The notes below the pieces were generated by a model. That model was given only the letters and a program-made list of their open reading frames with translations, ran no database searches and was not told the DNA's origin. Of a stretch of 49,455 nt of DNA, positions 3,640 to 39,200 are shown piece after piece. The translations under genes were made by a program, and so were the position numbers. This stretch comes from Girardia tigrina (taxonomy: Eukaryota), in the NCBI GenBank assembly GCA_001938485.1, contig MQRK01185467.1:1-49455 (forward strand), in the 5' to 3' direction. Position 1 is the stretch's first letter, and each line of letters starts with the position of its first letter.

Positions 3640-4649
3640 CACAAGAACTCACACACCAGTCATTTTTGACCTTTTCACACTTCAATTTGCTATCAATTAT
3701 GGCTAATTTTGTTTTTTTTCCAATGAGATTATGTTATAAATAAATAATAATAACAATTCTAAAAGCTTGGAAATTTAAAGTACGGAAACTTTAGTTTAAA
3801 TGCTGCAAAATTTAGATTATACTAAAATGCCCACCGATCATATTTGATAGATGTGCTCTGCATTTAAAATTAGAAATATGATCTGTTTTATTTAAATAAT
3901 TTTATTCAGGAATAGGGTTGAAATTGTGAACTAACGGAAACTTTTATTTTGTAGAAGAGTGATTCAGTTAGGGGAACTACCTATCAAAGTGGTTGCTAGG
4001 GTCTACTTAATTTTAGTGTTTGAATCAATCACAATTTTAGCCTAATATAATTAGGTTGTCGTTTTGTCATTTTCGATGAATACTATTGAGATACCTGTCT
4101 TGAATGAAATGAAAATATTTGTAATATAATTATTTGCTAAGATAAAAGGGTTTTTGAGAAAAAAATAATATTTTATTAAGCTTTCTATTATTCTAATTCC
4201 AAATATGATATCTAGTATTTTTGTATGGGCAAAATGTATAAAAGAAATTGAATCTTTTTTTATCTGATTTCATGTTTTTATCTTCTTATTTACATTTTGC
4301 CTCTTTTATTTTAGCTTACAAAAAAGACGAGAAACTGTTTTTGGTGTCCTTAAAATCCTTTGGAATTGTGATCCTGTTGAAGAAATATTTTCAAATGAAT
4401 TTGGACGTAAATTTTTTAGCAATACCATATCAGTACGAAAATTTTGTTCAATTATGTCCAGTTTGCTATTTGATCGAAAATCTACTCAATGTTAAGGAGT
4501 TTAATCTGAACTGTTTGCACCAATCTGCTTTTGATCAACGAATTTTTAATAAATTCACAACAAACATAAGAGCCTTATTCAAATCTTGTAATGGATGAAC
4601 AATTATTGCCATCAAAGAATCGACCCAAGTTTCTGCAATTTATGGCTAA
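3640..4649 (+). mobile_element. piggyBac transposon A, 5' part (TIR plus decayed transposase)
   Basis: TTAA|CACAAGAACTCACACACCAGTCATTTTTGAC terminus at 3636-3670; decayed frame EFGRKFFSNTIS..KF..IMSSLLFDRK...PYSNLVMDEQLLPSKNRPKFLQFMA(N). Confidence 0.85.
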
Positions 4650-4652
4650 TGT

Positions 4653-5511
4653 TGTGGTTCTGTGGTGTTGAAACATGTGAACATATCTTGGGAAACTTAG
4701 GCTTTGAGCCCCCAGGTTATCGGTAACCAACCATAAAATACTCTTATGTCAATGCAGTCTCTGCATGTGAACTCCTAATCTCTCGATGTCTATGACCACA
4801 ACTTACCTCTCACCCAGCATACAATCTGCACGCAGTGATAAGTGATGAGGACCTTCCAGGTTCCAGATCTACACAAGTTTAAGACCAGGTAGACCAGATC
4901 AGCCCTAATGGGTATGATGTGATGTTAGATTAAAACAATTTGCATTAATGTAATAATCCCATGATGTGTTTTAGATTCGAATACGGCTGTGTTGATCCCA
5001 GATACTGTATGTTCCATCTTGTTATGTTAAACCCCCTTAGCAGATATAATAGCTATCACAACATTCCATCTTTTGTTATTCTAATCATTATGTCGTGTTC
5101 CCTTCTCTCGACAGCATTTTCGTGGACTCAGAGCCCCCATCCGTTTTTGAGTTCAACGGCAACTCCAATATGTCATTTACCTTCATGTATACTCATACTA
5201 CACCCATGAGGAGCAGACGCGTCTCCTCCGCACACATCAACAAGTTGTGTGTGCTTTGGAGCGCTTTCGGGTTCGAACCAGTAACGAGTATTGCTCGACT
5301 GGTAGCCTCAGTATCCTGTGGGGTTGATGATTTTGTTTTTATCGTTATGAATTTTACTCGCGAGTCCTCACTTTATATAATATGGAAGGAAGAGAGCTCC
5401 AAGGAAGTAGGCGACGATCGAGCTGCGTGCCCCTTGCATACTGCAGCCGACCCGCGCCACCTCCAGAGAGTGCTTCGTTCTCGACAAGAAATTTTTGCGT
5501 ACATAACCACA
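4653..5511 (-). mobile_element. LTR-like unit (~860 bp), probably a solo LTR of a second family
   Basis: GC-richer block with TGTGGTT...AACCACA inverted termini and a TATATAAAG box on the minus strand (5380-5372); flanks ATGT/ATTT are an imperfect TSD. Confidence 0.6.
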
Positions 5512-6529
5512 ATTTATTGAAGTTCCACTTCGTTTCGGTACTGACATTATTTCATACATACCTTTGAAAAATCATTGTAAAAGTATTTTCAATGATGTCA
5601 AGCCTGCTTCATTTTAATCTTTTATCATTCTGAACGTGGCTTAAATGGAAAATGACCAAACAATTAAATCACGACGTTTGCCTCAACCGGTCAAAAGATC
5701 TCAATAGTGATTTAAATAAGTAAGATCTCCTTACTAGTTAGATTAATCAGTATATGCAAACTTTGTTCCTTTGACACAATATTTATCGTTTTTTTTTCTT
5801 TTTTCAGAAGAATTGTATAAAATCAATATGAGTACCAGCAGAGTATATAATTAAGATTTATAATTGGTTTATATTTTCGTAATTTGTATAATTTAACATA
5901 CTAATATAATTTATATTTTACGACTAAGATTATAATTAGAATTTATAATTATTTGCAATTGGAGCGGAGAATTGCCGATTTGACCGAACATTTTTGCCAT
6001 TTTTAAGAATTCATAAATAAAAATATATAATTAAAATAATTAAATTAAAACAAAGTAATTAAAATGATTAAATAAAAATAATAAACTAAATTAAATAAAA
6101 ATTAATAAATAACTAAATAAATTAAATAAATAAATTGATTGAGTCTGATGAAAGCAGAAAGAAAAATCAGTTTCGAATCTTATTTAAAAAATGATGTTGG
6201 CAAATGATTCAATAATGTGCGATTTGAAATTGCGAAAATTCGAGCAAATTGAACTATCGGCCATTGTGAGCCTCATTGTTTTTTTTTATTTTGTGTCATG
6301 AATTTTCTCTACCAATGAATGACTGGTAATTTTCTTTCTTTATGTTTATGTTTGTGTGAATGTTTGTATGTATTGTGAATGAAATGTAATTGATTGGTTG
6401 AATGTGTTGTGTGTGTGTTATTTTTTTTAATTGTGAATTATAATCACAATTTCAATTTTTGTGTTTTAAAAAAGGGAGTGTTGATTGATCAATTTATTAA
6501 AAAAATAATTACAAAAAGGAGTAAAGGAA

Positions 6530-7209
6530 GAGTGTGTGGAAATGTTCAAATTTCAATTCCAATTTAAAAAGTGGTGAATGAGTTATTGTCAATTTAAAAA
6601 AAAATAAAGATCTCGTGTTTTGTTCTGTTTTTGAACAATTAAAAAAAATATATTTGAATAAAAAAAATGGAAAAGAGTTCAATTTCAATTTATTAATGGA
6701 AAACTTGAATAATAAAATGGCATCCAATATCAGTGACGATGATTTTGAAAACTGTAATTATTGTAAACAAAATAATCTACCAAATATTGATATTATTGCA
6801 TGTTGTTAAGATTCTGAGAATACAAAAGATTCTAATGACCAAAATAATTCCGTAAAAATTGATTTAACAATTTCCAGTGATACTAAGACTGTATGTGTTA
6901 GTGAAGACTCTTGTAAATTTGAATTGTGTAAACGAGATGGAATTCCGCTCATTGTTTTGCTCAATAAAATGAAAAGCACCTTTCAACCGACATGTAAAAT
7001 GAAAAATAATTATTCTCAGCCTAAAATATCGTGGAGACACGGTTTCCTGTCCAACAATGAGATCGCTCGAAATTAATTAAGACATAAAATTGCTTTAAAT
7101 AATAAGCGGAGCATCGAAAGGAAACTCATTGAATCGCACGCGTTGATAATATTTTCTTTGTATATTATTTACAAACGAAGAAATTAACTTCATTAAAAAA
7201 ACTAATTAA
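6530..7209 (+). pseudogene. Decayed orphan ORF (cargo 1), Cys/Asn-rich, unknown product
   Basis: One frame stays open for about 225 codons with three internal stops (6579, 6807, 7074), including an 88-codon stretch DSENTKDS...WRHGFLSNNEIARN, which is unusual in DNA this AT-rich. Confidence 0.5.
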
Positions 7210-7269
7210 ATAAAAATAAAATTATTCGTATTAAAGCAGAATACTAAATCACAGCAAAATAAAACAATT

Positions 7270-7740
7270 TAAACTCTTATTCTTTCGACTCCTTTGTTCA
7301 TTTTATCAGTGGTTCAATTAATTAACTTTCTCACTCGCTTGTAATCAAATCCTTTATTACTCCATCTCATCCACTTATTTGTTGATTAATTAAAGTTTCT
7401 TAATCGTCTATCATAAATTAATTTCTATATACAATATTTACATGGGCTCTACCGATCCCTAAACATCATACCTCCGAAGACTTCTGCTTCACTTTCTTTC
7501 ACGTCGTTAATTATTTGAAATTCATTCAAACAATTACTTTCTTGTAACTTGCATAATATTTCAATATAGATACCTTTATTTTTCTTATAGTTTTCTAGGT
7601 CTTTAATTTATGGATCTTTTGAATTTCTCTGTACAATCAACTATGCATTTGGATCAACATTTCGCCTTCAAGGGTAATCGTTCCAAGCATTATTTCATCC
7701 ATTATTCTTATGTTCAGTTGTGTTTCATCGATTTTATCAT
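7270..7740 (-). pseudogene. Decayed orphan ORF (cargo 2), convergent with cargo 1
   Basis: DKIDETQLNIRIMDEIMLGTITLEGEMLIQMHS*LYREIQK, frameshift, then DLENYKKNKGIYIEILCKLQESNCLNEFQIINDVKESEAEVFGGMMFRDR*; purine-rich on the minus strand. Confidence 0.4.
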
Positions 7741-8259
7741 AAATAAAATATTTTAACATTTCAGATAAACATGTAGTTTCAAATTTTGTTTATATTTGTT
7801 CATTTATATTTTGTCATTGTAATATTTGTTATTATAAATATTATTTCTTATCAGTTAAGACTCACATAATTATATAATATACTATTAAATATTAAAATGT
7901 TTTAAAAAATGTTCAGATATATAAATAATATAATATATTTTATTTTCTTTATTAATAATCAAAAAAAAAGTAAAATAAAATAATTTTTTAAAGTTCTTTC
8001 TATAACCAATAATATATTGTTTATACCTTATTTTTAATGTACTTCTGTAATTGATGAAGTAAATAATAAATAATATATATATATATATATATATTTTTAT
8101 AACCAAATAAAAATCGAAAATTACAAATTGTATAGTACTTATAAATATCTTCAATTTGATTTAAAAGTTAAATCTATTTGAAATATTAAAATCCCCCCTT
8201 TTTTAAATTGTATTCATTAATTTTTTTATTACTAGGTAATTAATTAATTTATTTACAAG

Positions 8260-8605
8260 GATAATATTTTCGGAGTAGTGCTTCAAGAAACAAATTTATT
8301 TCAAGAGGTAAATTATTCTTTTAAGAATCTTCGTCAACAAATTTTTTACTCTTCTTTTATCTTTCAGTGTGTTTATTACATTTAACGAGGTTATTATTAT
8401 CTAAAACATGTTATTGCTTCACATCAAAAAAAATTTCTTTTTCGCTATTGATTATAGTATTATTAATCACAAAGATTCACAAGCCTACAAGTATCTGGAA
8501 ATATAAATCAGTTTAAACTATCAAGCTAAACCTTTTAGAAGGATGACCTATATTTATCAAATGTTGTTACTCTGTTATTTAATAAAAAATAAAATTTGTA
8601 AATGA
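8260..8605 (+). pseudogene. Decayed orphan ORF (cargo 3)
   Basis: After a ttacaag acceptor-like site: DNIFGVVLQETNLFQEVNYSFKNLRQQIFY...*RGYYYLKHVIASHQKKFL, frameshift, FAIDYSIINHKDSQAYKYLEI*... Confidence 0.35.
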
Positions 8606-8784
8606 CGTCAACTGAATATTTTGTTTGGCAACTTTTTTAAACAATTTAAGGTTAGATATTTGAAAGAGATTAATTATACTATATTATATTAAAAAATTAT
8701 TTTTAACTGCTAAATTATTGATCTCAAATTGATAATCAATGTCTTTATTTCAATACCTAAGTCACAAATTGTATATACATATAT

Positions 8785-8792
<8 letters not shown>

Positions 8793-8832
<40 letters not shown>
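8793..8832. repeat. (TA)n microsatellite (others at ~8073-8095 and 46791-46828)
   Basis: Direct observation. Confidence 0.95.
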
Positions 8833-8839
<7 letters not shown>

Positions 8840-8959
8840 AGTATAAGTATTTTGAATATTTCTGTAAAATAATTTACTAATTTATTGAATGAAATTATTA
8901 TCCTTGTTAATAAATCATTCAATTAATAATATATTAAAAATTAGTTATGAAATTCAATT

Positions 8960-9360
8960 TTAAAATTAAATTGTAATTATTATCCAATTAAATTCAACTA
9001 TTAACTTCAGCTATTATCAATCCCACCGAAACGCACATAACACCTTCATTATCCGTTATTTATTAAATTTGCAATTATTAATTCTTTAAGCGAAACTGTA
9101 TCATCGTAAGTACTCATCTTCATACCTTCTCTAACATATCGTTCAAGAAAAAGAAGAAATATAAATAAGGTTAACAATTGATAATCGAAAAATTACATTT
9201 AAATATTAAACGAGAACGAATTCTATTACTAACTCTAAGAAATATCATCTAATCTCCGACTACCCTTTTATTTACATTATTTACAGCGAATTCCTTGCTT
9301 TCTAACATCTCAAATCCATTTCGTCCCTACTGTCTCTCGTCTCTAATCAATATATTAAGG
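8960..9360 (-). pseudogene. Decayed orphan ORF (cargo 4), convergent with cargo 3
   Basis: LIRDERQ*GRNGFEMLESKEFAVNNVNKRVVGD*MIFLRVSNRIRSRL... and, after a frameshift, FLERYVREGMKMSTYDDTVSLKELIIANLINNG. Confidence 0.35.
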
Positions 9361-9925
9361 TTTACTCGAAGTTAAAGAGTCAAATAATAAAACAAATAAA
9401 TGTCAAAATGACTAAAATAAAATATATTAAAAATGAGTCAAATAGTAAAACAAACAAAATGATTACAATAAAATATATTAAATGACATTCACCAAAACCG
9501 AATTATTAGAATAACATGTAATGCCAATAATAATATTTACTTGATAGTTAATTATTTTCAGGCTAGATATCAAAATTCGTACAAACTGGGTTAACGATCT
9601 TTTACAATTTTTTGTATTAAACTTGGTATAGCAATTCGTATAAAATTGACCAAAATTTTCGTGGTATTCGGTTGTTAATGATAATAATAACTTACAGATT
9701 AACAAAAAATGTGCAACGAAAAACGTGTAATATAGAGCGTAATAATAAATGTGCAATAAAAAAGTGTGTGTTTGTTTAACTCGTTCGGGTATTTATACCC
9801 TACAGGATGTTCGATTTGCAAAGGTAGGATGAGGGGGAAAAACGATTTCCGTCATCGCAATGTTAATTGCAAGTGATTTAATTGTTTCAGATTAATTTTT
9901 GATTAATTATTTTAGATTATTTTAG

Positions 9926-10617
9926 ATGTTGCTACCCTGCCGGATGCCGGTCAATCACTGACTGATAATTATCGCTCGCCGGTAATCGAGACAAACGGCA
10001 GTTATTCCGGGACAGGATGCGAGGGGGCAGAGAGGAAACAACCCTGATCACAATAATTATGCGAGATCCTGAGTCAATTACTGGCTTCAAATGATTGCGG
10101 GTAATTTATTTAATAAATCAAAGTTTTTAATTAATTATTTTTTTTAAGGATTTCGAAAGGTTCTCCAAGCGCTTTTCGGGTAGATTCGAGACTAGGGTCG
10201 ACTTACTCTGGGTGGGCTACAACGGGTTCAATTTTCAGGCCCTTAACGCTATCGGGTGAGTTTTTAGGACCTTTTCGGAAATTTCGACTTTAATTAATTC
10301 ATTTTTTAGCTCACGATTAATCTGAAAGATTTTTTCTTGACGAACCAAAGGGAATAATGGACTCTCCAATCTCGTCCGTCATTCGACGTGATCTGGGACC
10401 TACTTACAACGAGCCAGACTACATCAAACTTTACCTTCTCTCAAAGGTTCCTGGCGTGCGGTGTGGCGGCGTTATTGGGGAGTTGAGGATCTCGAACGTA
10501 ACAATTATAAATCTATTTACAAAATGTGAACTCGAATACCCTAACGCAAATTCTCCATTTATGTGTGTGATTTTAATGCCAAGATGTGATATAGAAAAAG
10601 AAAGAAATGCTAATTAA
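9926..10617 (+). pseudogene. Spliced, decayed cargo gene (cargo 5): exons 9926-10100, 10149-10255, 10310 onward
   Basis: GC-rich blocks separated by 48-bp (GTAATT...TAAG) and 54-bp (GTGAGT...TTAG) AT-rich introns. The spliced frame ...GFK*LRDFERFSKRFSGRFETRVDLLWVGYNGFNFQALNAIGSRLI*KIFS*RTKG... is interrupted by TGA codons. Confidence 0.5.
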
Positions 10618-10709
10618 ATTTTAAACTATTTAGTGCATGTTAAATTTTAAAACAATATATTAACAACTCATATAAATCCACTAAATATTATTTTGTAAAA
10701 CAACATTCT

Positions 10710-11254
10710 CTATACTCTTGCGGATTCTTTTCCGCTTTCGCCTATTCACATAATCCTCACCTCTATTGTCGGTGATCGACCATTGCGTTCCTAGAGTGCG
10801 CGACTCTTTCCCTTTGTCGGCTCTCACTTTCTTCCTTAGCTGGAGCTAAAGTTGCTCTGAATAAAGTCACTCATGCTCTCTTATTCGGCTCTCCATTGCA
10901 ACACCTCGTTTTACCACACGGGCGTATTCATCAGACTCTATGGAAGCTTCTTTAGTCACTCTCAGCTTCATTGATAAGCGCAATACGCTATCACGCAGGT
11001 TCAATATTTCTTTGCGGTCTGCCGCCCTGACTCTCTTTAACACTTTATTCTCTTCTTCCAACTTCTTAATCGTACGCTTTACTTTTTGCAACTCTATCTG
11101 TTGTATCATCTAAAAATCATAATGGTTATAATATGAGTTGTCGATTTATTATTTAATCTTATTCTACGTAAGCGGTCGGACAGATTTGCAGTCGGATTCC
11201 GAAACTGCCTTCCGGTATGAACTCCTGAGCTTTGTTGTCACTCACGGATCTCAT
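10710..11254 (-). pseudogene. Spliced coiled-coil cargo gene (cargo 6): exons 11254-11168 and 11109-10710
   Basis: MRSVSDNKAQEFIPEGSFGIRLQICPTAY joins in phase across a 58-bp GT..TTTAG intron to MIQQIELQKVKRTIKKLEEENKVLKR... (heptad pattern). The frame continues past TGA and TAG to ...RRKRKESARV*. Confidence 0.55.
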
Positions 11255-12106
11255 AACCCGGTGACCTATCTGGCCGCTCTAAAGCGCATGCTGGAACCAG
11301 CCTTCAAGAATTTATGTGCGTTCAAATTTAAGTTGACCCTACCCAAGGGTATTCGAGTTTAATGAAAATAAAGTATCGTAAAAAAATAATAAATTATTAT
11401 AAAATATTTATAATTGTGCGTAAAATAAAATGGTTCGACATAATTAATAAAAAAATATAATTAATAAATAAATAATAGAGTGACTGACCGTTTCGTGGGA
11501 CCCGAGAGAGAGAGTAACCCTCTAATTGTAACCTCTTGTAATTTATTTGCTTGTGGTAAAGATCAGATTTGTAACTGAATTTTTGTCAAAATCTTTGTGT
11601 CTCAAAAAATTGTCTTCAAAAATTGTCTTTCAAATTTTTGGTCTAAAATTGTCTGATTTTCTCAAAAATTCTTGCTGCTTATATTGGGTACACAATTTAT
11701 TTTGGGTGCACACTCTTACTCGTGGCTACTTTTCCTTCGTTCACGTAGAGTTCCAAACCGCCAGGTCCAATTCCATCAGAGCACGTCACTTCCAAATTTG
11801 GTGACTGCCAATTTTAGCAACTTTTAGAAAAACTGATTCAGCGATTTTCTAATTCTAAAAGTACGTTTATTTTATTTTTTGTTTTAATTTTAGTAATTTT
11901 CACATTTTTTTCCAGCTGTTTCCGGACCTTCAAAACATCATTGTTTAATCGAACCAACTGTATCCCATCGGTGACGACGTCCTGCGCGCGCGGTTCAAAC
12001 TCCATTAGGAAATTCCGTCTCAAAGTGAGTTAAATTTACATTTTTAGTTTGAACTTTAACTTTTGTATGTTTTATTTCACTTTTTTGTCTCACGGAGCCA
12101 GCATAA

Positions 12107-13518
12107 TGTATCGGCCCGCCTCTGCGACGATCCAGAGGAGAGTTGAGGATTTATTTATTTAATATATTCATGTAAATTTGATTTTAACTTTTTCTGAAAA
12201 TTTTTGATTTCAACTGAAACTTTCGATTTTATCTTTCAGGATTTTTGGTAATTGTACTTTTCAGTAATCCTCACGTTAATTGATTATGAGTTTTGAATTA
12301 TTCTATGATTTGGCTGATATTCGTTATGCGCATGATTTCCTTGGATTTTATTTTCCATATCGATTTTAGTCGGATTTTTTATGCGGAGTTCGATTATTTT
12401 CATTAATCCATTTATTTCTGATTTTTTGGTAATTTTTTTTTAGAATATTTCCGCATCTAATTCATTCCGTTCGATATATTTTCGATCTATAATTTATTGC
12501 CGATTTGATGAATATTTATCATTATTGCGTTTTTGCAGCTTTTTACGTTACTCTAAATCGGTTGGAATCTGTTTCAGTGGCGTCCGCAAAATATAGGACT
12601 CATTGTTCACTTGAATATTTATTATTTTGGATGATTTTCGATTTAATTGATTTTTACGTTTCTTTTCGTATTTTTCTATTTTCGTTGCGTATTTTTTCAT
12701 GTTTTCTATTGCATAATTTTTGTGATAATTTTTACGAATTTTTTCTGCTTTTATCGATCAATTTTCTTTCATATTTGCGTTTTTGATCGCCGGAATAAAA
12801 TAAATTAAAATTTTGTTATTTTTTAATTATTTTCTTCCGAAATCTTGGTCGATTAGTGTTGATTGCGGTGTTTTCGCATCTTGTTGATTTTTCTGTGATT
12901 TTTTCGATTATTTTATGAATTTTTCGTATTTATTTTGTGAGGTTTTCATCGGTACTTCTTTATTTGGCGATGTTCCAATTTATACTATTTTTGTATTTAT
13001 TTGCTATTTTCTCTCGTTTTTCGATGTGATCATTATCTTTTATTATCTGTGGGTATTTTACTAGTATTTTAATGATTTTTCCGACTATTTTATTTGTTTA
13101 TTTCACGTAATCCGTTCATTAATCGTTATTTATTGATTTATTAATTATTATTTTTATTTCAATTTTGCTATTTCTCTGTCAATTCTCAACGGATTTTTGT
13201 AATTTTTATTTTGTTTTGTTCGTAAAATTATTTGGGAATTTTTCATGATTTTTGCGGATTTTTATTTATTCTTTTACATGCGTTATTCTGATTTTATCGA
13301 TTATTTGTCCGTAATTATTTACCTTACTGCCAATGTTTGCACTTTTTATCCCATTTTATATACATTTTAGCACTTCTTGTTGCCGGTTTGTTACAATTCT
13401 TATGTTTTTTTGTGTGATTTCTCCTGTTTTTTATGCTTTACAATATTTCTGATTATTTTGTTTAAATCGATATTCAAATTTTATATGTTTTATATTAAAT
13501 TTTGATTCTTTCGCAACA
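12107..13518 (-). mobile_element. Putative 5' LTR (~1.4 kb, A-rich) of the large insertion, followed by a PBS-like site (12100-12087)
   Basis: Minus strand begins TGTTGCG, is strongly A-skewed, has AATAAA near 12160, a short GC-rich U5 ending GATACA at 12107, then TGGCTCCGTGAGAC 6 nt later. Confidence 0.6.
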
Positions 13519-13760
13519 CTAACAAACCTGATAAATATGAGTTAAAATTTTGGTTGATGTCAAGAATCATTTTTTGCATAAATCAGTTACCATGTCTTGA
13601 TATTGTACAGTGATCTAGGCGTCGAGCCAATTGGATCGTATGTTGTGAAAACATTGACGAAGCTTTTCAAAAGATCAGGATACAGCGTCTCAGCAGATAA
13701 CTTTTTTTCCTCAGAAAAAGTAATCAAGAAGCTTTTATTGCACAAAACTTTGTATCTTTT
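13519..13760 (+). mobile_element. piggyBac transposon A, continuation of transposase
   Basis: (A)NKPDKYELKFWL...PIGSYVVKTLTKLFKRSGYSVSADNFFSSEKVIKKLL, containing the piggyBac KPxKxG and DNFF motifs. Confidence 0.88.
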
Positions 13761-14059
13761 CCACCATTGGCAGAAATTTACGATTGCACCAGTCTGAATT
13801 TTATAAGTCTTGTGACGGTTCCATGACAGTCCGACACAAGACAATTCGACACAAATTTTTTAATTCCATACATTTTTTTAATGGGACAAATATTTTATTT
13901 CGACATTTTTAAATTTCGATTAGTTTTTTTTAATTCAAAACTTTTTTTAATTTGATCAATAACTAAAATGAAATATTTTCATTATTACTACACATTTTTT
14001 GAAACACGACATTTTCAATAACTATATTTTTAGTTAGACTAATGAGTTTTCCTGTATGT

Positions 14060-14178
14060 GATATGAAAAAAATCAATTTTTATGAAAAAATATGTATTTA
14101 ATATGAAAAATATGTATTTAATATAAAAATATGTATTTAATATAAAGATATATATTTTATATAAAAATATGTATTGAA
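14060..14178. repeat. ~20-bp tandem minisatellite (AAAAATATGTATTTAATAT), split by piggyBac B and resuming at 15802-15900
   Basis: Same unit repeated on both sides of the piggyBac, which sits in the unit's TTAA. Confidence 0.8.
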
Positions 14179-15801
14179 CCCTTAAACGACCACTGGGGTC
14201 TACTGGACCCTAAAATGTTTTAAAATATAAATAACTTTAACAATTCAAATCCAATTGAATCTAAACTATGATACATTTCTTACATAATATTGATGTAAAG
14301 TTTACCAAACACATCAAGTTTACCCACATTATACCATGTGGGGTCTGTGAGACCCCAAATGAATAATTAGCAAAATGAAATATTAAAAGTATTGCTAACG
14401 TTTTTAGTTTTTTAGGAAGAGGGTTTTTAAAAAATTGTCACAAATTATACCATGTGGGGTCTGTGAGACCCCAAATGAATAATTAGCAAAATGAAATATT
14501 AAAAGTATTGCAATGCATTTTGATCAGTAATAATAGCAAGATTATACATCAGTTACTCAATTGGTATATAAAGGCTCATAAATGTCATGCAAATACTTTT
14601 AACCAGTTATATGTGAATATATTAGGTTATATAAGCGCACATGTTTATTGTCTTGTTTGCTGGTGCATTTATATATGTCTACGTACGGCCAGTCAGTTAT
14701 ACTCGAATTGTATGTACGTCTCTACAACTGCATAAATTAGCATTTTCATTGTTTTCAAATCGTTTTATAAATTTTAAATTTTTTGAATAAGAAACGTCCA
14801 ACTAGAATAGCTGCAATTGAGGCGAATAGACACATAGAAATTGGTGATGATATTTTCGAAGGTTTTATTTTGAGTTATCTTTTATAACATATAATTATTT
14901 TTTACTTGACGAAGAAAACGAAGAAGATTTTTCAGAATATGATGAAGTTATTTCCAATCCAAGAGAGCAAGAAAGTAATGACGATGAATTAGAAGTGGTA
15001 AATAATGATGAGCAAGGCGTTATGGTATCTCGAAATGGCATTGAAATATTGGAACGTCGTTATATTTTTAATGCTGAAAGACAGCATAGACAACACGATA
15101 TCTTACGTGAGGAGGCAGGGCCCACACGACAAGCACTACAAAATGGTTGTGGTGACAGCCCATCGAGAGCGTTCAAAGTATTCTGTGGTTTAGATATAGT
15201 GGCCATTATCGTTCAAAACACCAACACAAAAGGCCGACTACACAACGCTAATTGGGTTTTAACAAATTCTGATGAGTTGTATCGATTTTTCTGTCTCCTC
15301 CTGCTTGCCGGAGTTTATAGAGCGAAAAGCGAAGCAATCACTCAGCTTTGAAATGAACAACATGGTAGATCAATATTCTATAAAACGATGTCCCGCAATC
15401 GTTTTTGTGAATTGAGACGGTATTTACGCTTTGATGACAGGGGCACACGTGAAGAACGTCGACGAAATGACAAATTGTTACCAATTCGAAATGTCATTGA
15501 CATTTTTGCAACAAAGTACCGATCAAGTTATAAGCCCGGAGCAGTTGTTGATGAGCAATTGGTGACGTTTCGTGGACGTTGCCCATTCAAATGTTTATTC
15601 CAAGTAAGCCGGGTAAATATGGTATGAAATTGTGGGATGCAACGGATGCAGGGAATTCCTATTGTGTCAACCTTGAAGTTTACACTGGTCGACGTGATAG
15701 TGAACAATAAATAGTGAAAAATAAAGGTGAACTGCCTATGCAAATGTTACCCACGCTACAACGACAGGTTGGTACTCAACGTGTACTTGGTCGTTTAAGG
15801 G
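14179..15801 (+). mobile_element. piggyBac transposon B, internally deleted, transposase pseudogene ~14930-15710
   Basis: Perfect 14-bp TIRs CCCTTAAACGACCA / TGGTCGTTTAAGGG, flanks TGAA and TTAA. Protein ELYRFFCLLLLAGVY...L*NEQHGR..MSRNRF..LRRYLRFDD...VDEQLVTFRGRCPF / IPSKPGKYGMKLW. Contains a ~67-bp internal direct duplication (14329 and 14445). Confidence 0.95.
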
Positions 15802-18482
15802 TTAATATAAAAATATGTATATAATATGAAAAATATGTATTTAATAAAAAATATTTATTCGATATAAAAATATGTATTTAATATAAAAATATCAATTTAA
15901 TATGAACTAATGTTTTAAAAATTCCTTCGTTTACAATTCAGCGTGCCATATTATTTTGAACATAGATTTCAATTTTTATATATTTTATATATAATTGGAT
16001 AATGATATAATAATAATTGGATAGTGATATCTTAATCAAAAAAAAATATTTGCCAATTTCACATCGAAATGTACATAAATATTCAACATGGTATGAAGTT
16101 CTTGTCAATATTTATAAATTGTCGAGGAATATCATACTGAAACTGAATTAAATTCAAAATATTTTTTCACAAAATTTTCGTTATTTGTCTAAAATGCAGA
16201 ATAGGACATAATCAATGATAATATGAAATTATGTTTAAAATTAATTCCCCGAACTAACGAAAAGGCCAACGGTAACCAATGAAGAATCACTGAAATAAAC
16301 ATTTGGAATAATATATAGTCAGACCTCTCGTATCCGTCAGGGTGGGTTTTTTCGACAGTGTGACGGATTTGACAGCTCGTTTTCAATGGCGATTTGAAGC
16401 TCTGTTAAATGAAAATCGCGACGCATACGATACGTCTGACTGCATTAATCAACATTTCTTGTATTCAGCATTGCACTGTGCACTCATATTTTTATAAATA
16501 ATTATCGTGTATTTCGCTCGGGTTACTAACCACATGTTACTTATTATTAAATTTGATTTTCAAGTTTGTCAGAGCTGGGTGTCTGTAACCTGTGAGTGTT
16601 TTATATACGCGAAAAACACATTAAATAGAATTTGAAATTTCATCTAAAATTTTTATATAATCGATTTTCTTCCCCATCAAATTTTACTAAATTTTCCAAA
16701 CGAACGTGCAATTATTTACATAATACCAAAACTAAAATTAAAAAACGAACGGTTCTCTTGATGTAAATAAAAAATAGCTGAATCGATTATTATTATATAA
16801 TCAATAATTATCTGTTTTAAAACAATAAAGATAATAAATAATCAATACTGGTAACGGAAAATAATATAATCAATATATCGTCATTAAATCGATATTAACA
16901 GATCGGGTGGTAATGGGATTCTTCAGTGACTTTACTACGCGTCACCATTAATCAATTAATCAATCAACCAATACAGTCAGTGCCACACACACACACAATC
17001 TATACAGTCATATATCAATGTGATATTATTGATCTCTTCCTCTTCGGCAATCCTCAAATCGCGAGTGAACTCCCAGACACCGCCAATAATCGATACATCG
17101 TCCTTCATGTCACTCCCCCAATGTTACCCAAAGTGTAACCCACAACAAATAAAAAAACGGTGTAAACGAATATCAAAAAATATGAAAAGAACAATCGTAA
17201 AAAGAACTGGTTTTTTATTGACTCTATTTTACTAAGTTAATAGAAATCATTCAATTTGATAGCTGGTTTATATCATAATCATTAGAACTCGTATGCGCAC
17301 ACTCCGCTCTCTTTCAAATATAGTAATTAAACAATGATTAATATATTAATATTATTAGTATTTATTATTATTTATTTTGCTAGTGGTTCACAGAGTGGCT
17401 AGTCTGTTGCCTGGAAAATAGCTGAGGATCATTACCGCTGACGTTTGAAGGTGCGCACTGTACACTCTGAACCCGCATTGATGACATCATATTGAAATTG
17501 CCTTCTGGGAAATTGCCTGGAAATTATCTTTCTTAATATTTTCATTTTGTTTCAAAAATTACAAATAAAATAATCAAGACGCCATTTCAATTGAAAAATT
17601 GTGAATATAATTTCGAAGGTATTTATCCATTTTAAAACATTTTTAGATTGTATCTTTTGGATTGATAAATTTGATAATAAATTAGTTTTTTTTATCTTTT
17701 GGTCCATTATATTAAATTTATCCTTCAAAAATTATATACAGATAATCAAAAATAAAATATGAATATTTTGTAATACACAAATCTCAGGATTCAGTCCACT
17801 ACAGCTAATTCGAATACGGAAACATTCCCCTAGTTTTCTGCAGTTAATTATTTTTTTTATTATAGTGAATTATTAAATTATTTTTTCATCAAAAACACAA
17901 ATATTTTTAAAAATTATAAATTGACTGTGATGAATTTTAAATTTGGTATGTTGAAATTGGTTTGTTGAATTTTGTATGTTGAGTTTAGTATTTGGAAATG
18001 TGTTTCTCCCACCCAGATGGAAAATTGATATTTTAGATGTTCACGATAAATAATTATTCGAGTATAATTTGCATTTTAAAGTACAGCATAAGATGTTTAA
18101 AATACTTTAAAAATATTAAATCTTTTCAAATTAAATAAATGTTCTTTACATAAAATTACAAAATTTGAACTTTAAAAAGAAAATCTGAAAATAATTTAAA
18201 AAAAGGTTCGAATAATTGTTTATTAAAAACATTAACTAAAATTCAAAGAACGATGTCGAATTACGAAAGCTTTGCTGAAAATTGTCCAAAAGACAATTCT
18301 AATTGTTTTGAAAATAAAAGTTCGAAAAGCCATGTGGTGTTCTTAATATTGACAATATTCCAAAAGTTAATTATTTAATTACTTTAAAAATTAATTTTTG
18401 ATTCTTTAGGAGTTTACTGTTGATTTATAAATTAAAACATGTTAAACAATAAGTTAACATAATTTTTTTGTTTTATACTTAA

Positions 18483-30200: not shown

Positions 30201-33200
30201 ATGAAAATTCATTCGAAGAATCAAATTTAATGCACTATGAGCGTCCCAGCACCCCATAAAAAGCGTCATGGCTTAATATTATGAAGACAAGATGGTCACT
30301 GTGTAGAAAGATGAAACTGGATAGGTTTGGCCATGAAGTATTTTTTAATCAAACAATATTAGAATCTAAATTATACTGATAATAACATTATAACATTATA
30401 CTGATAATAATACTTATAATAACAATTAAACCCTACTTATACTCAAAAGCAAAGTTAATTATATAATCAATTGATATTTGATGCATTTATACCAAGTTGT
30501 ATGAACCGATATTTACAAGTTTCTCCTAAAATATCATTAAGAATTTGAATTTTGAAAAAAAGTTAGTATGAATGAAGAAACAATATTGCTATAAAATAAC
30601 ACGAAATCATTAAGTATTCTCTCAGCTTGTTTTCCTCGGCAACATGGTATTGTCTGTTAGATCATTTTAATTAATTTTTTTGACAAAAGTTTTCCTCGTT
30701 TTTCGATTGTGATAAAAAAGATATATGGATAGAATTATTTTTACAAACTTGAAACAATCGATATCGAACCGAAAAGAATTCATAATAAATCAGATAATAA
30801 TTTAAAAATCTCAATCTTTATCATGAGAAAAAAGAAGGTCAGAAAAAATAGTGGAGTCAACCCAATTGATTGAATCAAATGCGATGGATCACAGAGTGTC
30901 TTGGAATTACTACTCGACAATTCTAAATATGTTATTTAGATGCGAGATCTTATCAAGATTCACAGAAATTATTGTCAAACAAAAGTGGGATATCTCATAG
31001 ATATCGGTATTAATAATATAATTTTTGATCAACTTTTTTTTTTGATCAACTTTAATAAGAAAATATTGAAATTCAAATAGTAGAAAATGTTACCTGATTT
31101 GGACAATTATAATTGATTGGAAACTGATTGTTGAATTGATTATGATTGATTCCCATTTGAAGATCTGGACTTGAGTGTTGATTCTGATACCTTTGATACA
31201 TATCGACATTATTTGGATTATTCATAAACAGTGTCATAATGTCATTTGATGATGGATCACCAAGACAACTGTTATTGCCTGTTGCCTCAAACCCAGGAGG
31301 AGGGGATGGAAAACCGGAAGAAATAGATTGCACGGCAGTAGAGGTGCTGGGAATAGTATTGTTTTGATTAGCCACCAAATTTAAATTGGTCATTTGTTGA
31401 TTTAATCTAGACTCATTTGGAGAGGGTTTATCGTGAATAAAGGGTTGTCCAGGTGCACGTGAATTCAGATTAAAGAAATCATTGTTCGATTGCATTATAT
31501 AATCATGGGGATTTGGTCGAAGCATGCCGCGTTGAGGAAGAGGTGCATAAAGAGGATCATTGGGTATTAGTTTATTTGTTAAATAATTATTCATTCCCGG
31601 AGTGGATTTTTGACGGTTTTCATTAGCTATCATTTCGGCTAAAGCTTGTCGTGAAACATTGATAGGATCAAAATCAATATCAGCTGTGTCTTTGAATTTC
31701 TGTTCGTAATTTGAATTGTTTTTATCAGATCCAAAAAACCTATTAAAGTCCATATCTGATCTGTGGTGATATTGGCAGTAATTGAGGACTCCATTATTGT
31801 TTGCTTGTTGATTTATGTTGTGATCATATTGCTGATTGGTGGTTGAATTGCTTTGAGAATTGAGTTGATAAAAACTTTCCAACAATGAATTACTATTATC
31901 TGAATTAATACAATTCATGAATGTGTCTGATACCCGAGAGAGAGGTGAACTGGAATTTAGTGAACTACCTAAGGTTTCACTGGGATGTGAAGTGTTTGAC
32001 TGAGAATTATCCATTATACTATGCTGATAGTTATCTTTTGAAACGTTTGATAGAGTCTGATCTGGACCTGTTTTACTGACTGGCGGTAATTTTGAATTAC
32101 TGATATCACCTGACACCATATACACTTTGCTAGCATCATTTGGATCTGTTCCTATTGGTGTCATATGGACTAACCCAGGTCTCTGAGATTTACTGTTTGA
32201 TGCTAAAATGTGTGGAGTTGGTGTGGTTGATATACTACTCGTAAGACTTGTTTTTCTCTGAGTTGGAGTTACACAGTCAGAATTTGTTATTGATGTGGTT
32301 GTGGCTGTCGAAGAAGTGGTATTTACAATATTTAATTTTGAACTGTCGTGATACTCTTGAATAAGTTGATTTTCATATTCGGTATGTTTACCATTTGCCA
32401 TGTCTTCTTTTGTGAAACTAGCGGCTTGATCGCCCATTTCGTGAAGATACATACAATCTTGTTTTGTACATTTTCTATTACGTAAAAATTGACTGCAGTA
32501 TTTTGTTGTCCCGAGAGATAATTTTACAGCACGACCATCTATTTCCAACTTTTTCAGATCCACCAAAGTTTTTAGTGCATCCTCATTGCGGTGGTACGTA
32601 ACATAAGCACTGAGACATGATGTTCCCTAAAAAAGATTATTATTAATTGTTAAAAAAATCCAAGTCATAACTTTCCCAAAACTTCAAAACGTTTTAAAAA
32701 TTTACGTGTTGTACATTACATAAATACGAAAATATATATTATATATACATATATACGAAAATATATATTATATATACATATATACGAAACTTAACAATAA
32801 AAATAAAAACAAATATTTTCATTAAAAAGCAAAAATAATAATTCTCTTTATTGGATATTACCAAAACCTTGTGTTGAGAACAGGCATTACTGACTTATCG
32901 AGATTCATTAAATATTTGTTATTTTATAGTTTTATTTTATAAAAATTCAGATTTGTCAGAAAAGATGATGAAATAAAAATACATAAAACTGCAGAGATTA
33001 TATTAAAATCTTGCACAATATTAGTATAATATATATAAAAAGTGATTTATTCCACATCCATGTGGTTCAAAATTGCTAATTTCGGTCTTCGATGTATGAA
33101 AGTATTTGTTGCTGTTTAAACCGAGTTCACATTCATGAACATGAAAAATAGGATCCGATCGCTGAATAGATGTATAACTCACATTTTGAGACTTCGTTTG

Positions 33201-36200
33201 CATATAGTGGAACAATAGGATCATGGAGTTCCAATGTACTTAAAGCATCAAAAAGAGCAGACATAAAAATCACATCGATTTCAAAATTTTATTGATTATT
33301 TAAAAAATTTTATTTTTACATTAAGAAATTCAAATATTTATTATCACTTATATTAATTAATTCTTATCTCTTTTAAATTAATTAATATTTAGTGTTATTC
33401 GGTTTGAATTTAATTTCAGTTTTGATTGTGAATTTTATTATAGAAGATTAACAAATTCGGATAAATAAAAAAATATATTTACAAAATTTTTGTTTGATGT
33501 TGGACACTCAGTTTGGATGAGTATTCTATTCGATAACATACCCTTAATTTGCAGTAACCAAAACTTACACTATAACTAATTATAATAAATAATAATGAAA
33601 ATTAAAATGAGTTGTGGGTTCAAATTATTGAGACATTTGTAAATAGTTCCATATGAAGAATAGACAAATCAAAATTTAAATAATGGCTATTGAAAATATT
33701 ATGATTATAACCAATAGAATCCAAATGAACGTAAATGGTTACTCTTATTTGAATATCATTAAGACCGGAAGAACTGCGACATTAACCGCTAATTAATCAA
33801 CTGATATAGAATATCTACAATGGAAGCACGCTTAGTAGATTTATATGGTTAATAATTATCTTAATGTTTCAATACATATGTTTAAATACATTTAATTAGA
33901 AAATTATTTATTAAAATAATTTTCTTAAGAATATTAAATTTTTATCATTTCTTCAATGTTTAAAAACTATAAAAATTTCTAATATGTTTAATGATACAAA
34001 TTGAACATTTTACACCTTATCTAATTGAACATTTCTGGTGCCCGGAGTATTGGGAGAGGGTTTTAAGACATGACAATCGAATCCTATCAACATAATTCTT
34101 TACAATAAAAACGTGTGACCGTCATTATTGTGAACAAAAATTGTCTTTTATTAATTATGAAAATAACATTTCTTATCAAATTTATTGACAATACATAAAG
34201 ATTTTACCACTACGGAATCTTCAGTGTAATTAAATTAATTTCTATATAGTTGATACCTCGAAAAAATGCTTTAATATGTGAATGGATTGTTAAGACGTTA
34301 TTAACAATATTTAGTATGGGCATCTCTGTATACTTGTACATTCTTGTAATTCTTTTTGCATAATTTAGAACAAAAATTTTAATGGTGAATGATTTTTTTA
34401 TGTTCTGACATATGTCGATAACTCTTATATTTAAAGGTCATGAGGATGCCCAATTTAGGAATGTTTCTATGAATCTTTGGTCCCAAGCTTGGATTCCTAA
34501 ACTGAATACTTTTCCAAAAATGCCTCTCTTCGTTTCACTGGACTGAATGTACAACATTCTGAAACAATATTTCATAAACTCAGTGTGTTCATATTGATTT
34601 ACGTAACATTTGTAAGAGTTTAATAAGGTTGTGTTTATCTATAAGCAGTTTTATTATCAGTTTGACGAAGAAAATTTATGATCATTAATATAACAAAATC
34701 TTTTTTTAATTATAATCTAAGATTTTAAATTTAAAAAGTAATAAAGTCGAATCTTTTGGTAAAAGTAATTGAAAATTTTCTACTTGTTTTATGTATATAG
34801 AAGATAAATTGAAAGAAAGCCGATAAAAGAATTGATGCGGTCTATTTCCACGGATTATCTTCATATTAATTGCGACATCCCAGATAGAGAGAGAAACAAA
34901 GCGAGCATCAAATCAGAGAAAGATTTAACTTGAGATTGCGACTGCGATTTTATTATAATTCTGAAAATTAAATTTGTTTATAGAAACAACGAATAAATTA
35001 ACTTTTCTTTTAAACCGAATAAACTGATAAAGGACATAAAAATGATTTATTTGGGCATATGAATATAATAATACAACTCAAAAAATTATAAAAATTATAA
35101 TGCCGAATAAATAAAATAATTCTTTATTTATGATTTTCAGTGATTCTCTAAAATTGATTGATTAAATTCACAAGAATTTCCAGAAAATAATTCGATATGA
35201 CAAAATGATTGTTGAGAGTGCTATCGAGATAAACTTCATTCTTTGCTTTTAATATTATCTCCATTTTTAAATGGACATAAGTGGCGTTTTGATGTCTTTT
35301 AAGAGACCACGGCTAAAATAAATCTGAAGTACTTTAAAATGATTGATAACAATAAATCAATATTTTTAGGGTTTGAAAACCTCAAAATGTTTTAACATTT
35401 AGAAAGACATGTTTTATGAAAATTATTTAACAATAAATAATTATATAATATTATTATTTCTAAAATTAATTTTATGATACTAACCTGTGGGCCGGGAAAT
35501 GTTTGATTTTGATTGATAACGATTTTATATACTTTCCCACATTTTCCAAAATAATCTAAACCCTTCAATAATTCTACTTCTTCTGCCATTCGCATTGGGA
35601 GACCGACAACGAATATCAGATTCTTCTGTAAAACTCGATATTCTGATAAATATTCTTTGCCTTCCTGAGCGGGCTTTCCTTTCTTTGGGCATACTTTTTT
35701 TGAACTTTTTAATTTTATTTTAATTCTAAAAACATTTTTTGACATTAATTGGAATATTAATTATAACGGGAATAAAATAGCATTATTTTGAAATAATTAA
35801 TTTGTATAAATAATTTTTAAAATAAGAAAATATCTAAAATCAAAAGCTTTTATAAAAGAATTATATTTAAAAATATATCTAAATAATTTTATAAAAGTTA
35901 TTTTCAAGAATTATTTACTTTTATTTGCTAAAAAACTTAAGATGAAATTAATTGTTAAATAATTGATTTAAAAAAATATATAAAGCCAAGGATAATTATG
36001 TTTTAAATGAATTTTAAAAGTCATTCTGAAAAAAATTAATTAATGAAATTTTGATTGATAGAAATGTAATTTTTAAAACTTTATAACTTGAAATTCTCTA
36101 AATTAAAGATTTGATAAATAATTAATTTTAAATAGTTTTTTTAAATAAATATAATAAATAATATAATAAATTTAAATATTGTAAATTTTTTTTATTTAAG

Positions 36201-39200
36201 TTATACAGATGCTAAATGATTTTTAATTTTACGTTAATGAATTCCATTCTTGATCAAGAACCCAATAGATACAATGAAAATTAAGAAGCAAATATTTATA
36301 TTAACAAAAGAACATTTTTTAAGAACATTTTATAACCCAAATTTTTAGAAATATTTACACTTCTTAAAACAAATTTCATCATTATCAGTCCAAAATGCAA
36401 CTTTAAGAGTTATAAAAATACTTAGAAATATTAAAGATAATCAATAAAACCTAGTGCACCATGGCATTTTGTAACATAAAATGTCATGGGAATAGATGGA
36501 ACTTGATTTCACATATAATAGTGACCCATTTTATTGATTTATTTTAAACATTTTTGAAACAGAATATGAATTTGGTTGAAAGTAAAAAACGTTTGTAAGT
36601 AATACAAAAATTAATAATTAAATGTAGTTTCACAGTTCTCACATAATGTTAGCTCCATTTTCCTTCACTTATAATAAGAAAGTATGATTAAAACCAGCAA
36701 AAGGTGTAACATGAAAAAAAATACCTTTAAATAAATAACAAAAACATTGTACATAAGCCGCGACCCATCGGAACTGATAATTTTAATATCCTTCGATTAC
36801 TTCTTCTTTAAAGCTTATGTATATGGAATATACCCAACATCAGGTGCGTACGCAAAAAAATATTTCGTGTGGGTGTAATATTACGTAATAACCGTTTTTT
36901 TACAGTTATAAATATTAAATTAATCATTATTAAAATAATAAAATTTATAATATTATCGAAACACCACTAATGCAACTAATATCCCTTGGCCATTGGCTTC
37001 TATAGATAGAAGGATTTCGTTATCTGCAGCATGTTTTATGTTTTGAGGAAGTAAAATTTCTATGTTCTACAAAACTTATTACGTAATTAAGGTAATCATT
37101 TAAATTTTTCGGGCGTATGATTTTCTTAAAATTGCAAAATATTAATTATTTTGGACAATTCACATTTTAAACTTAAACATTTTAATTGTTTCTTAATGTT
37201 AGTTAAAAAAACTCTGAAGTTATTAGAATTATTATTTAATTTTCTAAATTAATTTGGAGAGTTCACATTTTAAACATAAGATTGTAATTCATTTTTTTTG
37301 TCGGGTGGGGGAGGGCATTTATCCCCCTAATTCCCTCCTGCGTACCCGCCTGTCCAACATTACTATTAAAATTCACAAAAAGAATGCCTAAGAATATGAT
37401 GAGAGCGTGTTAAATGATAGAAGTCTTTCTGCTATACCTATATTATTTTAAAACACTAGTATTGGAAGTAATGTTGGTAAATGCTTCATAGTCAAATGTA
37501 TTAAAAGATGATGTGCTATTCTTAGTGATTATGAATATTGCCCGTCGTTGACTGAACCGGTGCCATTGCTACATTTGTCCGAAAGTCGATATACAATGAC
37601 AAACTAAATACAACTAAAATGTCAACATAGCGGCTTGTTACAAACTCAAATCAAGAATTGGTAATTTTACACAGAAATAAAAGAAGTAAAATAAAATGAT
37701 AGCGATTTGATTCATTGAAAATTATTAAAAAAATAAACATTAATATTCGGAAATCTGGAACGGTTTACTTTAACATCAAAATTGTGTCTAGAAATGAAAA
37801 ATGAGGATTATTTCCAAAAAATAACAACAGATAATTCTTTATGTTTTATGTCAGATCTTATCAGATAAATTACAGATTAAAGATATTAGTTTTGGAATTA
37901 AATATCCGAATGAAATTTATTGAGGTTCTCATATGAAAAATATCTATTTGGTCTAAGTTTTTTATTCATCTGGCAACAGTAATTATTTATTAATGTATTC
38001 AATACATTCATGACAACATTGCCTTTATCTAGAGGATCAAAGAAAAGAATTGAAGTTAGTGTCCACGACAAATATCTATCGGGTCCGACACTCGTTACAT
38101 TGATGTTTCACGAATAATATTAACGGTCGATTTTCGATTTTCCTTTTCAGCATAAAATAATATTAATAAACGAATCGGGTATTCTTTAATTGATAAATAA
38201 ATTTTCTTTTAAAACAAGAATGAGATTATAGTCCTAAAAGTGATTCAATAGTATTATGGAAAGAACTTCAAGCAGGAAATATTAAAATATAAGTTTGATA
38301 GATAAAATCGCTTCAATAAAATACAATCACGTTCGCTTTTTGGTTAAAATAATGTCAATTAAAATTCCTTTAAATTTGAGGGTTTTGATTCGAGCTATTA
38401 TTTCTGTGAATTTTCTTTTCCATGAAAATTGTTTATTTTTGGATTAAAAGTATTAATCAAGATACAATATAAACATGTTGACGTTTTGTTTTTTATGACT
38501 TCACTGATTCTCTGGTAACGGATAAAAAATCGTATGCAAAAGGATAAATATGATTTCTTTCAAGAAATTTCATCGGGTGAAGAAAATGAAGGATATTTGT
38601 TGCGTAATGATCGTTATTATCTAATTTGTTTGTGTAATGTAATTCTATTATATCAGAATTGAGAAGACCCTCATCCTCCATGTTTTTCATAATTGCAAAA
38701 ATGGGAAAAGATTGAAATTTAAAAAATTAGATTTTTGGACCATGAAAATAATTGTAATACTTGAAAAACTTATTTAAAAATATTACATTTTGTTACACAA
38801 GGTTACAAAAAGTCCTCATTATTCAACTTAAAATTAGAAACAAACGATAAAATGGATGCTTCTATTTTCATTAGAGATTTTTTGTGAAGACTCTAGAAAA
38901 TGTCCGTGCTTAAGAAATATTGTGTCAAGAAACATTCTTGGCAATTTATTCGTATATTGCATTCAAATATAAATTGTAGCAAAATGCTTGATCGCTGTAA
39001 CTGAAATAGCTTTTAGGAATAATTAAATAAACGTAGTTTTTTTATTCATTGAGTCTTGCTCAACAAATTACCCTGCTCATAGACAAACTGTTCAATGCAT
39101 CATAAATTTCCCTTTAAAAAGTACGCCCAAAAATCAGACTGAGAAAAAATATTAAATATATGGAATAAAATTTCTACCAAAATACACTAATATTTTCCTA

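Follow-up and report, generated by a model that had tools for sequence, protein, structure and literature searches.

The 49,455-nucleotide contig MQRK01185467.1 of Girardia tigrina, hereafter the window, belongs to a 1.43-Gb AT-rich assembly (GCA_001938485.1), over which the searches for junctions and copies were run genome-wide. Within the window, the 8.87-kb block at 4650-13518 is composed of three solo long terminal repeats (LTRs), here named A, B and C, which are nested in one another and derive from three separate retrotransposon insertions. The outermost, LTR A, holds a 142-codon open reading frame (ORF; 10688..11109, minus strand), whose orphan, helical product has an arginine-rich C-terminus and which purifying selection preserved as the element was spreading, with neutral decay afterwards. 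The window's own copy of this gene is dead, being broken by two internal stops and small deletions. Taken as a whole, it is considered highly probable that the block is such a nest and that its outer, Burro-like LTR bore a gene of its own under past purifying selection, with a nuclear RNA regulator as the likely product; the regulatory role is graded on its own below.

The outer boundaries given in the initial annotation of this DNA were borne out. The block begins with TGTTG at 4650 and ends with CAACA at 13514-13518, the target-site duplication (TSD) CTAA stands on either side (4646..4649 and 13519-13522), and omission of the block together with one CTAA rejoins a motif of a dead piggyBac transposase, the flanks reading KNRPKFLQFMAN-KPDKYELKFWL; a weak DDE_Tnp_1_7 match was found in the right flank (E 0.009). 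The claim that these ends were made by an integrase also held, as did, in a six-frame view, the absence of any reverse transcriptase (RT), RNase H, integrase or gag ORF from 4650-13518. No long direct repeat linking the two ends of the block was found, and these ends do not form a repeat pair. However, the same annotation had read the interval as a single element bearing six genes arranged tail to tail in three pairs, either an accessory-gene region or a single non-autonomous cargo carrier, and this had to be abandoned, since two more TG..CA boundaries lie inside, each with its own target duplication, and the inner pieces are independent insertions that each occur alone as well.

The genome searches break the block at fixed points: elsewhere, 4650-5091 runs on into 10504, and 5091-5957 runs on into 7055. 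LTR A (3.45 kb) comprises 4650-5090 and 10508-13518, LTR B (4.3 kb net) occupies 5091-10503 inside A, and LTR C lies inside B at 5960-7053, A having inserted into the piggyBac, B then into the U5 region of A, and C then into B. LTR B ends in TGTCGTG..CGTAACA and is flanked by the duplication ATTA/ATTA (5087..5090 and 10504-10507), while LTR C has the ends TGGA..TCCA and the duplication GCAAT/ACAAT. The site of B is empty in 57 of the 59 other A copies that span it, the remaining two showing a different insertion or an N gap, and the site of C is empty in all eight other B copies spanning it. By pattern search, the B/C junction occurs a single time genome-wide, at the window locus, and the A/B junction is likewise confined to the window, as two of its three matches contain one mismatch and have no A alongside. 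Among complete copies caught by their end patterns, a perfect 4-bp TSD was seen in 6/6 for A and a perfect TSD in 2/4 for B, the window being one of the two; 10 of 16 complete C copies carry a perfect 5-bp TSD, two others have one mismatch and four are the ends of larger elements. Additionally, identity to the nearest copy climbs inward, from 88-90% for A through 92-95% for B to 98% for C. Because the sites are empty elsewhere, the TSDs are separate and identity rises inward, the insertions are regarded as separate events. Independent insertions never co-linear elsewhere, an outcome that the initial annotation had itself set against its proposal, are what the empty sites and locus-specific junctions revealed. 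Each full element would then have been cut down to one LTR by LTR-LTR recombination, as established LTR biology suggests. A- and B-type LTRs often nest in one another: at L211:1990-2110, an A copy is inserted into a B-type LTR, and at L021:6757-7420, A lies beside an older LTR with a diverged copy of its own ORF.

Element A reads on the minus strand. Its U3-proximal 3.0 kb (10508..13518) start with TGTTGCG at 13518, and its U5 end (4650..5090), contiguous with 10508 in other copies, closes with CCACAACA. The size of the family is a lower bound, at least 544 exact right ends being present. At 3 of 30 right-end loci, the LTR runs into a common flank made of a polypurine tract (PPT; minus strand) and an internal region, and upstream of this tract were found an integrase with a long orphan frame, then RNase H, RT, protease and a Monjiviricetes-type fusion protein. 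In this parent, pol has the order protease, RT, RNase H and integrase in one 1,859-aa frame with RVP, RVT_1, RNase H, Integrase_H2C2 and rve domains. Its env gave a Monjiviricetes_fusion match (E 1.6e-49), the fusion C-terminus and the protease sharing one frame, gag matched Ty3_capsid (E 5.8e-6, below the Pfam cut-off) and zf-CCHC (E 1.5e-8), and an accessory frame matched TRAF-mep_MATH (E 8.7e-23); continuity from gag to env was broken in the copies examined. The contig G000:C240315 holds, in succession, a 5' LTR, a primer-binding site (PBS), the TRAF/MATH frame, more accessory frames, gag and the rest, with ~26 kb of internal sequence from the PBS to the contig end. This PBS, located by walking from pol and next to the U5 end of A, reads TGGGGGCTCAGCTGGGAT and starts five bases after the LTR; we presume that it resembles a tRNA-Pro site. 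A strict pattern for it gave no match in the genome search, and none of 30 A left-end loci carried a PBS. Since PPT and PBS lie on the expected sides and the internal region of ~26 kb has gag, env and pol, A is assigned, by architecture and description, as the solo LTR of an apparently Burro-like Gypsy element of ~33 kb. The earlier guess that giant Burro-like LTR elements are involved was therefore a good one, and the search for full-length gag-pol relatives that had accompanied it led to this parent, with pol and env, elsewhere in the genome. The parent also reads in frame beyond integrase into an orphan region of >1,100 aa with hydrophobic segments (L206:4583-8071, L229:6468-9983, L127:4500-9650), for which Pfam gave no match and whose last 104 codons, the part tested, show purifying selection (w, the dN/dS ratio, 0.08; p 0.0025).

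LTR B (5091..10503, minus strand; 4,314 bp excluding C) belongs to a family with at least 50 right ends at up to 1 mismatch, again a lower bound. The U3 end of B is preceded by a PPT in two places, a PBS like that of A follows B-type U5 ends in 3/15 loci, and downstream of B-type internal sequence gag and env were found that are 25-56% identical to those of the A parent. On account of the PPT, the A-like PBS and the homologous gag and env, B is placed as the solo LTR of a Burro-related family that appears to be sister to the A parent. This placement is made through subfamilies 72-88% identical, as the only PPT-linked copy of the window's own subfamily has a short internal stretch and the PBS and gag/env links come from sister subfamilies. 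A ubiquitin-like domain was detected in a B-family ORF (E 2.7e-4). Six B-family elements (G000:C206602, C239256, C253217, C247209, C215642 and C219584) agree in the sequence next to the PPT and in the initial 7 bases of the LTR, and five of them then diverge at once from the U3 of the window, the U5 ends staying alike; the U3 of this family thus looks like an exchangeable cassette.

LTR C (5960..7053, plus strand; 1,094 bp) is followed by a common PBS-side flank in 9/15 loci. Two two-LTR copies were found, whose internal regions of 4.1-4.6 kb contain a DUF1759 gag and a Pao-type protease. LTR retrotransposons of the BEL/Pao group have a 5-bp TSD, a DUF1759 gag and a Pao-type protease, and the C family agrees with them in all three. 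In contrast to typical BEL/Pao elements, both two-LTR copies lack RT and integrase, an autonomous partner not having been searched for, and an Hsp90 fragment and a ubiquitin domain stand ahead of gag (L315, L314, L277, L280). As these copies lack RT and integrase, C is classed, from its sequence features, as the solo LTR of a putatively non-autonomous BEL/Pao-type element. One variant of the C LTR contains an ankyrin-repeat frame, and another a short piece that, by eye and with no Pfam match, we take to resemble LSm3.

The evidence that LTR A contained a functional gene comes from the pattern of variation among its copies. Variants were counted against the commonest codon of each column, and those shared by three or more distinct copies were compared with singletons. 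In 60 distinct copies, shared variants gave 48 nonsynonymous to 148 synonymous changes (w 0.09) versus 157 to 33 among singletons (w 1.30), the difference between the two classes being highly significant (p 6e-32). A rerun with 63 copies gave a shared w of 0.06-0.14 at three thresholds versus 1.42 for singletons, so that overall a shared dN/dS of ~0.1 stands against 1.3-1.4 (p<1e-26). The median pairwise w was 0.09, with 1,506 of 1,953 pairs unsaturated. The ORF is open in 25 of the 63 sampled copies, ends in TAA in all 52 copies compared and starts with ATG in 46/47; it is also open in a 3' LTR still joined to its internal region (L211). Among 1,513 candidate tblastn matches to the protein, ranked by score, 127 of the best 150 contain no stop. 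Majority stops number 4-14 in the other frames of the region; the antisense mirror frame echoes the signal with a w of 0.18, and three non-coding windows of LTR A used as control gave p >= 0.07 in every one of the six frames. When the entire LTR was scanned, three windows having too few copies, these codons alone were flagged, and protease and integrase, as positive controls, yielded w 0.01-0.03. Decayed homologues of the ORF, 27-40% identical, were found in older LTR-like sequence, and a profile search found no relatives of it in B or C LTRs among the loci examined. Between copies (52 compared; window 10500-11300), the difference at four-fold sites of the ORF is 0.50, against 0.16 in the predicted intron, 0.15 in the upstream exon and 0.17 in the 3' flank; either the flanks are constrained or the ORF lineages are older than their flanks.

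The ORF is accompanied by signals from which a transcript can be predicted. A TATA-like box, the predicted promoter of LTR A, lies ~600 nt upstream (11678..11683, minus strand) and is present in 6/6 distinct A copies matching a downstream anchor motif. Directly before the ATG lies a predicted GT..AG intron of 57-58 nt (11110..11167, minus strand), conserved in copies (GT in 42/47 and GC in 4/47; AG in 44/47), and an AATAAA overlaps the stop codon in 50/54 rows. Four runs of contigs, possibly RNA-derived, yielded no sequence joined across the predicted intron among the matches listed, an outcome that speaks neither for nor against splicing. Upstream of the predicted intron, a hairpin conserved in 26 copies (11212..11261, minus strand) is a weak candidate for a cis RNA element: 96.8% of its cells are paired, covariation is weak, with two-sided change in 2/14 pairs, and folding z ranges from -1.4 to -3.1 in 4 copies. 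The 300 nt that directly follow the TATA box showed no structure (z 0.16). The protein model is all-helical, with three helices (pLDDT 70, pTM 0.27), and the basic C-terminal tail RRKRQ(R)xRK is 88-100% conserved in 24 sequences. The only database homologues are eight metagenome proteins (P0002-P0009), 68-78% identical, on 0.5-1.7-kb contigs; a search of 1.84 billion protein representatives returned two matches, neither of them new. The source name "RNase H-like nuclease" carried by one of the eight is unsupported by Pfam. Pfam gave no match above its cut-off for the LTR A protein, the Atlas search gave weak generic matches only, and the viral fold search with the model gave none at E 0.001.

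Based on these features, transcription would start behind the TATA box at ~11680, the short intron would be removed, the ORF would be translated, and the RNA would end at the AATAAA over the stop codon. Since the predicted promoter lies upstream and the predicted poly(A) signal at the stop, the gene would sit in R, which would be unusually long, and each solo LTR would amount to a complete cassette. The protein may form oligomers through its coiled-coil helices, and its RRKRQ(R)xRK tail may bind RNA or import the protein into the nucleus, as Rev, Tat or the CERV of Cer1 do, so that the product could help the read-through or export of a very long unspliced genome. That the protein is such a Rev/Tat/CERV-like nuclear regulator of the element's own RNA is the favoured role, suggested tentatively as a possibility somewhat on the improbable side. 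More doubtful still is the wider proposal that Burro-type LTRs carry, in an R region of >1 kb, a complete gene for such a regulator, with promoter, intron, ORF and poly(A) signal, and that solo LTRs, present in their hundreds, would hence be dispersed genes, still translatable and able to affect intact elements or the host in trans. Several points weigh against the account given so far: the transcript start, the splice joint and the poly(A) site are all predictions; the upstream exon gave no clear coding signal (p 0.05-0.25); no homologue or fold found in the database, Pfam and viral fold searches indicates a function; for the exact subfamily to which the window's B belongs, no complete copy with both LTRs was seen; and the G000:C240315 copy of the A parent has assembly gaps and many breaks and lacks the last ~400 bp and the 3' LTR. 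Moreover, a second AATAAA lies inside the predicted intron, which would place the ORF in U5 rather than in R.

Alternatively, the nest may be as described, with the LTR ORF encoding a factor that interacts with the host or counteracts silencing, instead of one that regulates the element's RNA. This is rather unlikely taken by itself, and about as likely as the RNA-regulator role. In the accessible portions of the respective sources, Burro cargo is reported to include TRAF, BCL2, BIR and ubiquitin-like domains (PMC6431247) and Burro1 to be a PIWI target (PMC8532177). A coiled coil can be a dominant-negative partner, and the divergence of four-fold sites, three times that of the flanks, could reflect escape from small RNAs. 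However, no homology to host proteins was found in the searches made, amino-acid evolution is strongly purifying rather than diversifying, and the arginine-rich tail and upstream hairpin suit an RNA-binding role. Equally doubtful is the possibility that the ORF lies in U5 or the leader, that only the full-length or spliced RNA of intact elements serves for its translation, perhaps with the ORF as one exon attached to internal accessory ORFs, and that it is silent in solo LTRs. The AATAAA in the predicted intron and the predicted nature of the transcript ends fit this possibility, whereas the ORF's own ATG and TAA, together with the AATAAA over its stop, favour the self-contained gene in R.

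As regards the six orphan genes reported by the initial annotation, one is real, namely the frame within 10710-11254 (minus strand) discussed above, and the selection check proposed for all six gave a signal only there. The other five lack a selection signal or cross element borders. The ORF at 6530-7209 (plus strand) is a chimera over the C/B border at 7053, in which a C frame is joined to B sequence. The C frame itself (~119 codons; 6690..7053, plus strand) is open in most copies, with 0/119 majority-stop columns, and shows no selection signal (shared w 0.91, 12 copies, p 0.81) and no Pfam match; it is likely captured sequence. The core of the ORF at 7270-7740 (minus strand) is a captured plakin (plectin-repeat) coding exon fragment in LTR B (7482..7737, minus strand), which matches, at 87-88% DNA identity, a 674-aa open frame in G000:C235020 that contains a Plectin repeat (E 2.8e-7); the fragment also has plectin-repeat relatives, and no selection on it was found in LTR B copies. 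Dispersed copies of this plakin exon were noted in three contigs (L361-L363, corresponding to G000:C235020, C247937 and C93057), one being the open 674-aa frame and the others broken and reordered. For the ORFs at 8260-8605 (plus strand) and 8960-9360 (minus strand), every frame as read in the window contains majority stops, and no coding signal was found, at low power; the ORF at 9926-10617 (plus strand) is a chimera over the B/A border at 10503. Spliced genes at both B ends were also considered and rejected, selection being absent in all six B segments in a scan of low power (6-28 copies, few shared variants); one segment value of p 0.00085 came from the opposite strand, in a frame with 5 majority stops, as 1 of 36 frame tests.

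The proposal of one non-autonomous 8.87-kb cargo element, or of a giant-LTR accessory region with six genes, had in its favour the clean TG..CA ends, the 4-bp TSD, the lack of gag/pol inside and the one ORF that proved real. However, each inner element has ends and a TSD of its own and is also found alone, the junctions are unique to the locus, five of the six ORFs fail as described, and the true accessory region of the A parent, located in other contigs between PBS and gag, has no DNA in common with the block; because the sites are empty elsewhere, this proposal is refuted and is now very improbable. Just as improbable is that A and B are non-autonomous Ginger-type DNA transposons, as the TGT..ACA ends, the 4-bp TSD and the predicted intron inside might suggest, since Ginger elements have terminal inverted repeats tens to hundreds of bp long and no PBS or PPT, whereas the terminal inverted match of A is only 5 bp and, in other copies, A and B ends adjoin PPT, PBS and gag-pol, the existence of which refutes this assignment.

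Elsewhere in the window, a second decayed piggyBac (14050-15920; DDE_Tnp_1_7, E 1.5e-14) adjoins the interrupted one, the subterminal repeats of the two being related. Exons of a host gene with a zf-RING_4 domain, which we take to resemble CNOT4, lie at 31076-45477 (minus strand), and introns of this gene contain a mariner (42952-43894) and what is presumably a LINE-like fragment (41550-42023).

The systems with which the A family can be compared are described in sources consulted through their accessible portions. Burro/GYPSM1 elements are giant Gypsy-like elements of planarians with an internal region of up to 25 kb, a total of >30 kb and env in frame between gag and pol, and a MATH_TRAF domain was noted in the upstream ORF of one planarian element (PMC6431247). 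The A parent resembles them, by description rather than by sequence comparison, in its ~26-kb internal region, its total of >30 kb, its CCHC gag, its mononegavirus-like env between gag and protease and its upstream MATH/TRAF; no BCL2, BIR, ankyrin, SUMO-like or dUTPase-like motif was found in the scanned A-parent ORFs at E 0.05 with Pfam, the review having used HHpred. On the other hand, neither an ORF inside the LTR nor a long post-integrase ORF is mentioned for Burro in that portion of PMC6431247. Known cases of coding sequence inside an LTR are mouse mammary tumour virus (MMTV) sag and rem exon 2 and human immunodeficiency virus (HIV) nef, located in U3, and retroviral R regions measure 15-250 nt (PMC12789967). 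LTR A likewise holds protein-coding sequence, but these U3 genes lie upstream of the promoter, whereas the LTR A ORF is downstream of the predicted TATA box and the predicted R exceeds 1 kb; no sequence similarity of the ORF to MMTV sag/rem or HIV nef was found. The CERV protein of C. elegans Cer1, 517 aa long, is needed for the export of unspliced genomic RNA (PMC10309623). The LTR A protein is like it in being lineage-restricted, of a Gypsy-type element, with a predicted spliced RNA and predicted coiled coils; CERV differs in being encoded in the internal region and in its length, compared with 142 codons within an LTR, and the likeness is one of analogy, no homology having come to light. 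In the literature searched, which did not extend to Grohme 2018, its supplement or the Repbase entries, all of which may bear on novelty, no Burro or Gypsy LTR was described as containing an ORF; two matches for "LTR-encoded protein" refer to gag/pol and were discarded.

Solo LTRs nested in one another, elements of the Burro kind and captured pieces of host sequence are already known. Solo LTRs are usually regarded as non-coding regulatory relics. LTR A, from a family with at least 544 LTR ends, is a Gypsy LTR that holds a selected protein gene wholly inside it, with the frame still open in two-fifths of the copies sampled. Such a gene could account for the large size of Burro LTRs, and it represents a testable candidate for the means by which a 30-kb genomic RNA may pass its own 5' poly(A) signal and leave the nucleus.

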